Part shown: positions 1-508 of the stretch, piece by piece
Position numbering within the stretch: position 1 is the stretch's first letter
How the letters are laid out: each line of letters starts with the position of its first letter
From: Escherichia coli
GTDB taxonomy: Bacteria > Pseudomonadota > Gammaproteobacteria > Enterobacterales > Enterobacteriaceae
NCBI RefSeq assembly: GCF_003334255.1
Contig: NZ_QOWU01000229.1
Length of the DNA stretch: 508 nucleotides
Reading direction: 5' to 3' (one strand)
Notes under the pieces: generated by a model
What the model saw: the letters and a program-made list of their open reading frames with translations, nothing else
The model's database searches: none
Told to the model about the DNA's origin: nothing
Position numbers and translations under genes: made by a program

Positions 1-108
1 TCCACCAGCACTCGAGGATTATGAAATATCTGTATGGATTCACGGCCCGGCTTAAGGACCACCAGCCCAAGCTCAGGCACCAGAACAGGTCTAAGTAATA
101 CCCGCACG

Positions 109-381
109 TTACCTCCAGATCCGTTGCTGGAAAGTGCGGGACGGACGTGGTGGGCGTTCGGAATAAGGCAGCCTGACAGAGATTATCCAGTGCCGATAGT
201 CGAGACTGAGAGCTTTCTTAACCTCGAACCCGCGCCTGCGGTAAGAATGAATCAGCCATTCGGCCTGTTCTTCAGTACATGGTGGGTGTTGGTACCAGTC
301 GGTTTTAAATGCGTGTGAACGCCGCTCATGCCGGATGGCAAGGTCGGTATCAGAATTGTGAAATTTGGTTTTGTGCGCCAT
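109..381 (-). CDS. hypothetical small basic protein (90 aa), family not recognised
   Basis: ATG at 381..379 and TAA at 111..109 on the minus strand. In the minus-strand sense it follows a terminator, promoter-like hexamers and a leader with a weak Shine-Dalgarno-like AGAG 6 nt before the ATG. Second-codon-position composition is gene-like (A about 34%) and the first ~70 residues have a balanced, hydrophilic composition. Against: first codon position is C-rich rather than G-rich, several rare Arg codons (CGG, AGG) and one ATA, and a Pro/Arg-rich C-terminal tail (SERPPRPSRTFQQRIWR) that looks low-complexity. Confidence 0.4.
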   Translation of the reverse strand: MAHKTKFHNSDTDLAIRHERRSHAFKTDWYQHPPCTEEQAEWLIHSYRRRGFEVKKALSLDYRHWIISVRLPYSERPPRPSRTFQQRIWR

Positions 382-390
382 CTGTTTTCT

Positions 391-405
391 CTGCTGGCGC
401 AGCAG
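391..405 (-). promoter_or_regulatory. dyad CTGCTG-GCG-CAGCAG in the leader (possible operator or leader hairpin next to the ribosome-binding region)
   Basis: Plus-strand 391-396 (CTGCTG) is the reverse complement of 400-405 (CAGCAG), with a 3-nt spacer. On the minus transcript this gives 5'-CUGCUG-CGC-CAGCAG-3' immediately 5' of AGAAAACAG-AUG, so the 3' arm abuts the SD-like purines. Confidence 0.3.
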
Positions 406-416
406 GTGTCAGGTGT
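403..416. repeat. perfect tandem heptamer CAGGTGT x2 (ACACCUG-ACACCUG on the minus-strand leader)
   Basis: Plus-strand 403-409 and 410-416 are both CAGGTGT. A third CAGG follows at 418-421, and CAGCAGG precedes at 400-406. It lies in the putative 5' leader, 22-35 nt upstream of the ATG at 381. Confidence 0.6.
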
Positions 417-432
417 TCAGGCTGACGTGCGA

Positions 433-462
433 ATTGTAAACCAGAATGCCAGGAAAAAACAA
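433..462 (-). promoter_or_regulatory. candidate sigma70-type promoter for the 381..109 ORF
   Basis: Minus-strand TACAAT (complement of 433-438, 5/6 match to TATAAT). The best upstream -35 is a weak TTGTTT (complement of 457-462, 18-bp spacer) overlapping the terminator U-run. The alternative TTTACA (complement of 435-440) as a -35 has no convincing -10 at 16-18 bp. No extended -10 TG. Predicted start near 426. Confidence 0.3.
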
Positions 463-480
463 AACCCGCCGAAGCGGGTT
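454..480 (-). terminator. rho-independent (intrinsic) terminator, minus-strand only
   Basis: Minus-strand transcript reads 5'-AACCCGC-UUCG-GCGGGUU-3' followed by UUGUUUUUU. Plus-strand 463-469 pairs with 474-480 (7 bp, 5 G:C), loop 470-473 is a C(UUCG)G tetraloop, U-run is the complement of 454-462. On the plus strand the same stem is followed by AAGUGCGGG, not a U-run, so it is unidirectional. Confidence 0.8.
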
Positions 481-508
481 AAGTGCGGGTGCGTTGAGGA
501 TGCCTGAC
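479..508 (-). CDS. probable 3' end of a minus-strand gene running off the right edge (partial, frame tentative)
   Basis: In the minus frame aligned to the window edge the sequence reads V-R-H-P-Q-R-T-R-T-stop, with TAA at 481..479 inside the terminator stem. The terminator implies a transcript arriving from the right. Only about 9 codons are visible and the other two minus frames are also open here. Confidence 0.3.
   Translation of the reverse strand, partial: VRHPQRTRT

Follow-up and report, generated by a model that had tools for sequence, protein, structure and literature searches.

The hairpin and U-tract at 480..454 on the minus strand of the window (the whole 508-nt stretch of E. coli DNA that was analysed) form, with a probability that we put at about 0.9, an intrinsic terminator that ends the mRNA of hokD, a hok/sok-type moron in the nin region of a Qin-like prophage. 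Because an fbi (fold-back inhibitory) element lies directly upstream of the hairpin, the latter is regarded here as part of a post-transcriptional control module and not just as the end of an operon.

The terminator hairpin and its upstream gene

Matches to the window occur in 4531 of 5426 complete E. coli genomes, and EC958 and many other chromosomes are 100% identical to it. The EC958 copy lies in a lambdoid Qin-like prophage, in which a replication/early block, several small ORFs, hokD, a 90-aa ORF, DUF968/YdfU, rusA, a Q-type antiterminator gene and the lysis genes follow each other, all on the minus strand. Upstream of hokD, the Rfam model of the hok/sok 5' region (RF01794) is matched with 106.7 bits against a gathering score of 59, which makes the hok cassette complete; the sequence also shows the AUG of mok and an AUGA at which it overlaps hok. 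The mok frame differs among similar cassettes: EC958 (L001 6759..6700, minus strand) has a 19-codon mok whose UGA overlaps the hok AUG (AUGA), and in L008-type loci (L008 1144..1356) a 1-nt difference places mok in frame with hok as a 70-aa ORF.

Chromosomal hok loci were originally described in earlier work. The gene hokD (formerly relF) and its location in Qin have long been known, hok is enriched in prophages, and HokD is toxic on overexpression (bioRxiv 10.1101/2025.08.07.668861); chromosomal hok loci are reported, in work that the same preprint cites, not to mediate post-segregational killing. In the present cassette, toxin-antitoxin activity is putative.

Read on the minus strand, the 3' region consists of CCUCAACGCACCC GCACUU AACCCGC UUCG GCGGGUU UUGUUUUUUC, i.e., a 7-bp stem (480..474 with 469..463) with five G-C pairs, closed by a C(UUCG)G tetraloop and followed by a segment in which 8 of 9 nucleotides are U. 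This is the sequence make-up of an intrinsic (Rho-independent) terminator, a G+C-rich stem-loop with a U-tract directly after it, and a gene on the same strand, hokD, lies upstream of it with its stop 68 nt away. The isolated hairpin (30-nt segment) folds with -11.8 kcal/mol, compared with -4.1 +/- 2.1 kcal/mol in shuffles (z = -3.75; 0 of 200 shuffles as good). A pattern scan of the window returned one terminator-like site against 0.3 +/- 0.6 in shuffles, a count that is not significant alone, and the case for a terminator is therefore carried by conservation: the exact 18-nt hairpin is kept in 67 of 82 HokD loci (viral contigs with identical HokD, 80 in number, together with EC958, K-12 and one phage record). 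A preliminary description of the window had called this a textbook-quality minus-strand terminator with a UUCG tetraloop, and stem, loop and U-tract are all confirmed; the fbi element in front of the hairpin had not been recognised in it. Within the stem, no double changes occur among hokD-type loci, where we find one-sided C-to-U changes (L035, L056) and decayed copies only, so that support for the stem comes from conservation and position, not from covariation. In locus L074 (~1436..1470), a palindromic insertion of ~29 nt (AGCGCTGATTTATGGGGATCCCTCAGCGC) sits inside the terminator loop, with the 3' arm and U-tract retained after it. On the plus strand, an A-run lies 5' of the hairpin and AAGUGCGGG lies 3' of it; since no U-tract follows the hairpin in this direction, a plus-strand terminator was rejected and the terminator is taken to be unidirectional.

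The preliminary description had further proposed that a gene to the right on the minus strand ends at a TAA triplet embedded in the stem. The triplet itself is there (481..479), and its frame is that of base 508, the window edge. Extension to the right and annotation of the flank, which the same description had suggested, identified the upstream gene as hokD. Thus, a minus-strand gene does adjoin on this side and its transcript is expected to end at the hairpin, but its stop codon (window-equivalent 551..549) lies outside the stem, 68 nt upstream of the hairpin and in a different frame. With the flank added, the frame of the TAA reads ...RHL*CVRHPQRTRT*, with a TGA ten codons upstream (window-equivalent 514..512) and many more stops beyond, and no ORF of at least 20 aa ends at 479. 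The TAA is a chance triplet, to which only the truncation of the window at 508 lent apparent meaning, and we give next to no credence to an operon whose last CDS would stop within the stem of its own terminator, for all that the triplet is in frame with the window edge.

Another identity for the region is raised by two weak Rfam matches, according to which it would be either a CRISPR repeat or an Hfq-binding sRNA of the IsrK type, which is encoded in a prophage and has a leaky terminator. The isrK model (RF01394) matches the hokD 3' UTR (L001 6459..6540, minus strand) with 27.2 bits (E = 0.002) and CRISPR-DR28 (RF01356) with 20.3 bits (E = 0.47), but the gathering scores of 50 and 35, respectively, are missed, and both candidates were rejected on this ground. 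The isrK match consists of two hairpins of a generic kind, hok is not mentioned anywhere in the IsrK paper, the CRISPR-DR28 match is a single copy with no repeat array, and the region is fully explained as a hok 3' UTR. The similarity to Salmonella Gifsy-1 IsrK is probably a shared two-hairpin shape only, and an sRNA or a repeat at this site is very improbable.

Features of the window and its flanks. Positions are those of the window; all features are on the minus strand.
Feature	Position	Strand	Basis
5' part of a DUF968 (YdfU-like) gene; rusA and the Q antiterminator gene follow outside the window	1..107	minus	EC958 annotation
90-aa ORF, PHROG phrog_1212 (family of unknown function)	109..381	minus	homologues, PHROGs
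Leader hairpin H2: UGCGCCA (401..395) / UGGCGCA (380..374), enclosing the Shine-Dalgarno region and AUG (381..379)	374..401	minus	covariation, RNAalifold
Leader hairpin H1: GUCAG (426..422) / CUGAC (412..408), loop with invariant CUGAAC	408..426	minus	per-sequence folds
Candidate sigma-70 promoter of the 90-aa ORF: TTGTTT (462..457, in the U-tract), 18-nt spacer, TACAAT (438..433), start ~426	433..462	minus	comparative
U-tract UUGUUUUUU; expected transcript 3' end ~454-458	454..462	minus	pattern scan, locus comparison
Terminator stem-loop of the hokD mRNA: AACCCGC (480..474), UUCG (473..470), GCGGGUU (469..463)	463..480	minus	pattern scan, fold, conservation
TAA within the 5' arm of the stem, without function as a stop codon	479..481	minus	frame closed upstream, no ORF ends there
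fbi (fold-back inhibitory) element CCUCAACGCACCC	487..499	minus	MFE fold, other hok loci, PMC9841398
Section of the spacer that separates fbi from the first hairpin of the hokD 3' UTR, the latter outside the window	500..508	minus	
hokD, 51 aa, type I toxin; ends 41 nt right of the window	window-equivalent 704..549	minus	EC958 annotation

Predicted pairing of the hokD mRNA ends and mapped 3' ends in K-12

The 5' end of the hokD mRNA was predicted by taking position 1 of the RF01794 alignment as the first nucleotide, with similarity to the 5' end of R1 hok as a second guide. The predicted end, GGGUGCUUGAGG, lies outside the window, 373 nt upstream of fbi, and is complementary to it: CCUCAACGCACCC and GGGUGCUUGAGG pair over 6+6 bp with one bulged C. 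The predicted full-length mRNA of 419 nt has an MFE of -175.1 kcal/mol (z = -8.5; 0 of 100 shuffles as good), and in this fold nt 1-12 pair with window positions 499..487, with the terminator hairpin starting 6 nt later. For comparison, we folded one IncY-plasmid hokD-like locus and four R1-type plasmid hok loci; MFE folds give the same end-pairing in all six hok loci, which represent two subfamilies. In the five plasmid loci, the pairing partner of nt 1-12 lies 41-44 nt from the 3' end, directly before the terminator hairpin, and the order of stop, hairpin, spacer, fbi and terminator is kept, with terminator sequences that differ from that of the window. Between the subfamilies, the 5'-terminal tac and its fbi partner differ in a compensating manner, GGGUGC/GCACCC in hokD and GGCGC/GCGCC in the R1 type; tac is almost invariant among hokD-type loci, and the covariation therefore rests on this two-subfamily comparison with few independent events. 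In otherwise intact hokD loci, the variants of fbi are C-to-U changes that produce G-U pairs (positions 1, 2 and 13) or changes of the bulged base. By our own count, only about one-third of the single substitutions possible would leave the pairing intact, an argument that is weakened by transition bias. A hokD-like cassette at 606..700 of an IncY plasmid (L083, NZ_CP027199.1), with 94% protein identity, retains tac and fbi; the terminator hairpin behind its fbi is a different one, AAAGCUCC-CGAA-GGAGCUUU (written also AAAGCTCC-CGAA-GGAGCTTT), which is flanked by A-/T-runs and is possibly bidirectional, shared with a convergent gene.

In the model described for hok, which comprises a full-length and a truncated mRNA, tac/fbi pairing locks the full-length mRNA in a form that is untranslatable and inaccessible to Sok until 3' trimming removes fbi (PMC9841398). 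By analogy with R1 hok/sok, termination at the window hairpin would yield a full-length hokD mRNA of ~419 nt, in which fbi (499..487) would pair with the 5'-terminal tac and hold the message closed, untranslatable and out of reach of the Sok antisense RNA. Slow 3'-to-5' exonucleolytic trimming would then shorten the message as far as the stable hairpin just past the hok stop, taking off the terminator and fbi, and the loss of fbi would allow refolding into a translatable, Sok-sensitive hok mRNA. As the cassette and the early-right genes of the phage share one orientation, the terminator should also keep transcription out of the block of the 90-aa ORF, ydfU, rusA and Q, which apparently has its own promoter starting inside the U-tract.

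RNA 3' ends mapped in E. coli K-12 by Term-seq (Adams et al. 2021, PMC7815308, supplementary file 1) bear on the trimming step of this model. The tables list a 'primary' hokD 3' end at 1645082/1645081 (PMC7815308), which, in the printed 61-nt context with the register checked against the ATG of the neighbouring ORF, falls 7-8 nt past the first 3'-UTR hairpin GGCGGGGGAGAAAUCCCUCGCC. A processed 3' end is thus present in the K-12 homologue, as expected for a truncated hok mRNA. The preliminary description had named a 3' end near 454 as its test, and by this test the K-12 data are negative: at the corresponding U-tract (expected at 1645020-1645034) none is listed in the Term-seq tables. The K-12 locus is rearranged, with relBE in place of the sok/mok/tac 5' region of hokD and a different downstream gene, and its fbi consequently has no pairing partner. 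The absent U-tract 3' end fits rapid 3' trimming, especially with a hokD that has lost tac, and the relBE replacement may speed the loss of the full-length 3' end. With a Hok ORF upstream, a sok/mok 5' region, tac/fbi pairing before the terminator and, in the K-12 homologue, a processed 3' end, the features of a hok mRNA 3' module are found together.

The cassette boundary and the downstream junction

Across the 82 HokD loci, similarity to the window 3' UTR ends inside the U-tract, after 4-6 U, and about ten mutually unrelated downstream sequences lie beyond. Since the similarity stops at this point in all of these contexts, the terminator travels with hok and marks the 3' edge of a mobile cassette. 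In six loci (L006, L013, L031, L039, L057 and L058), fbi, hairpin and U-tract decay together. A stretch of 48 nt identical to the window fbi and terminator occurs at 1501..1548 of Actinobacillus phage vB_Apl-pPE4 (L090, PP818812.1), a phage that is recorded as infecting Actinobacillus pleuropneumoniae and that carries a Hok-family gene.

The hairpin is not exclusive to hok, and the same 20-nt hairpin ends other morons (L008, L025). Paired copies are found at 1425..1444 and 2272..2291 in L008 and L038 (duplicated stretch of 20 nt, AACCCGCTTCGGCGGGTTTT) and at 1426..1438 and 2091..2103 in L016 and L025 (duplicated stretch of 13 nt). The genes between the paired hairpins include a lipoprotein-looking 130-aa ORF and one of 164 aa that encodes an HPFANANKRT (Fic/Doc-like) motif. 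The duplication suggests that the hairpin is a recombination joint for moron gain.

These second copies, which lack fbi and stand directly before the 90-aa ORF after unrelated inserted genes, favour a different view of the hairpin, as does the orientation of the cassette, which is that of the early-right genes. The hairpin would then be mainly a terminator or insulator of the phage backbone in the nin region, like lambda tR2-tR4, gating early-right transcription into the Q block and shared between modules by recombination, with the link to hok being secondary. However, about ten contexts have the hairpin behind hokD and fbi, in several of them with no 90-aa ORF in the flank examined, and the terminator of R1-type plasmid hok loci occupies the same position with respect to fbi. 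We therefore consider a primarily backbone role unlikely, although the two roles are not mutually exclusive, and retain the hairpin as the terminator of the hokD mRNA.

Downstream of the terminator, a dedicated promoter for the 90-aa ORF that overlaps the U-tract, as proposed in the preliminary description, is plausible and has decent comparative support. Its -35 element matches in three of six positions, and the site was not called by the scan of the window. A -10-like hexamer lies 51-53 nt before the ATG (where counted) in five unrelated upstream contexts, with hexamer flanks that cannot be aligned: TACAAT behind the hok terminator, TACAAT (in L054, TATAAT) behind rem in loci of the K-12 type, for which the scan calls TTTTCA-16-TACAAT, TTTACA-16-TATACT in L029, TATAAT in L077, and TTGACG then CAATAT in L071. 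In K-12, a promoter-like TTGAAG-18-TAGAAT (L002 2482..2511, minus strand) lies directly after the hokD terminator and upstream of rem. Rem is an antirepressor of DicA, and the signal that turns rem on is reported to be unknown (PMC10448788).

Downstream of the hexamer, all versions of the leader (window 374..438; K-12 L002 2072..2144) fold into two hairpins, H1 and H2. The H1 stem varies in a compensating manner (GUCAG/CUGAC, GCCAG/CUGGC, GCGGGG/UCCCGC and GCAGGG/CCCUGU); MAFFT placed two stem types out of register, so that H1 was left out of pair-counting and rests on per-sequence folds. For H2, which RNAalifold also predicts independently, 98.8% of cells are paired in 23 distinct sequences, compared with 15-53% in slid controls, and three of the seven pairs are changed on both sides, with these changes amounting to few independent events. 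The leader has no match in Rfam.

Homologues of the 90-aa ORF are found in 59 other loci with 72-100% identity and behind five unrelated upstream sequences. It has no match in NCBIfam; a relationship to Rem was rejected, as there is no similarity to K-12 Rem, and the labels given to the ORF in phage records ('toxin to Rem', 'mobile element protein') are uninformative. RefSeq places a 59-aa 'hypothetical protein' (WP_001112736.1) on the plus strand at window 328..507, where it runs antisense to fbi, the terminator, the candidate promoter, the leader and the beginning of the ORF; the C-terminal part of this protein is wholly different where the sequence upstream of the hairpin differs (L008), and it is probably a spurious gene call. 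The K-12 homologue of the 90-aa ORF is intact (92 aa, 80% identity), lies between rem and ydfU (L002 1810..2085; NC_000913.3 1644309..1644584, minus strand) and is absent from the RefSeq feature table of the region. The Term-seq tables contain an abundant 'orphan' 3' end at 1644572, with scores (47,630-64,702) similar to those of hokD, which falls 12 nt into the homologous ORF and 5 nt past H2 and points to an expressed structured leader RNA in K-12.

As a tentative extension, to which we attach well under even odds, the junction might be an undescribed control point of the Q block, in which a promoter in the U-tract and the H1/H2 leader, acting as an attenuator or sRNA, would decide the expression of the 90-aa ORF, ydfU, rusA and Q, with the hok terminator as insulator; the K-12 leader may accumulate as an abundant, unannotated RNA of ~60 nt with its 3' end at 1644572. 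The probable promoter, the covarying leader that hides the ribosome-binding site and the unannotated K-12 ORF could matter for the control of Q in Qin-type prophages; of all that was analysed here, only the structured leader and this ORF might repay further work.

Relation to R1 hok/sok, K-12 Qin and lambdoid nin regions

The finding of a terminator is ordinary and already known in kind, the fbi-plus-terminator architecture of hok having been textbook knowledge since the 1990s. Its value is in part corrective: the embedded stop was an artefact of a truncated window, the 13 nt before the hairpin are a predicted long-range pairing element, and the terminator is the exact mosaic boundary of a mobile cassette present in most E. 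coli genomes.

The layout of the window and its flank is that of R1 hok/sok. In both, the hok stop is followed by a stable hairpin, a spacer, fbi, a short spacer and an intrinsic terminator, and in MFE folds the 5' tac pairs with an fbi located 33-44 nt from the 3' end. The predicted full-length mRNA has 419 nt here and 359-446 nt in the plasmid loci (439 nt in the R1-type locus L085). The terminators, however, have unrelated sequences: that of the window has a stem of 7 bp and a UUCG loop, and those of R1-type loci have a stem of 14 bp. The tac/fbi pair is GGGUGCUUGAGG/CCUCAACGCACCC here and GGCGCUUGAGG/CUGAAGCGCC in R1. HokD and R1 Hok share ~43% identity, and the present cassette lies in a prophage nin region, whereas R1 hok/sok lies on a plasmid.

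The hokD (relF) of the K-12 Qin prophage, part of the relB-relE-hokD unit, has the same fbi, terminator hairpin and start of the U-tract (L002), and HokD is identical in the matched loci. In K-12, however, relBE replaces sok/mok/tac, and rem lies downstream, followed by the homologue of the 90-aa ORF, whereas the cassette of the window is complete, with the 90-aa ORF directly behind its terminator.

A moron consists of a promoter, a gene and a terminator, and in lambda the terminators tR2-tR4 lie upstream of Q. The hokD cassette resembles the lambdoid morons and nin terminators in being self-contained, with its own promoter and terminator, in its position between the replication genes and Q, and in the mosaic joints at its terminator. 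Unlike the lambdoid nin terminators, the terminator described here would also supply the 3' end for a switch based on pairing between the 5' and 3' ends of the message.
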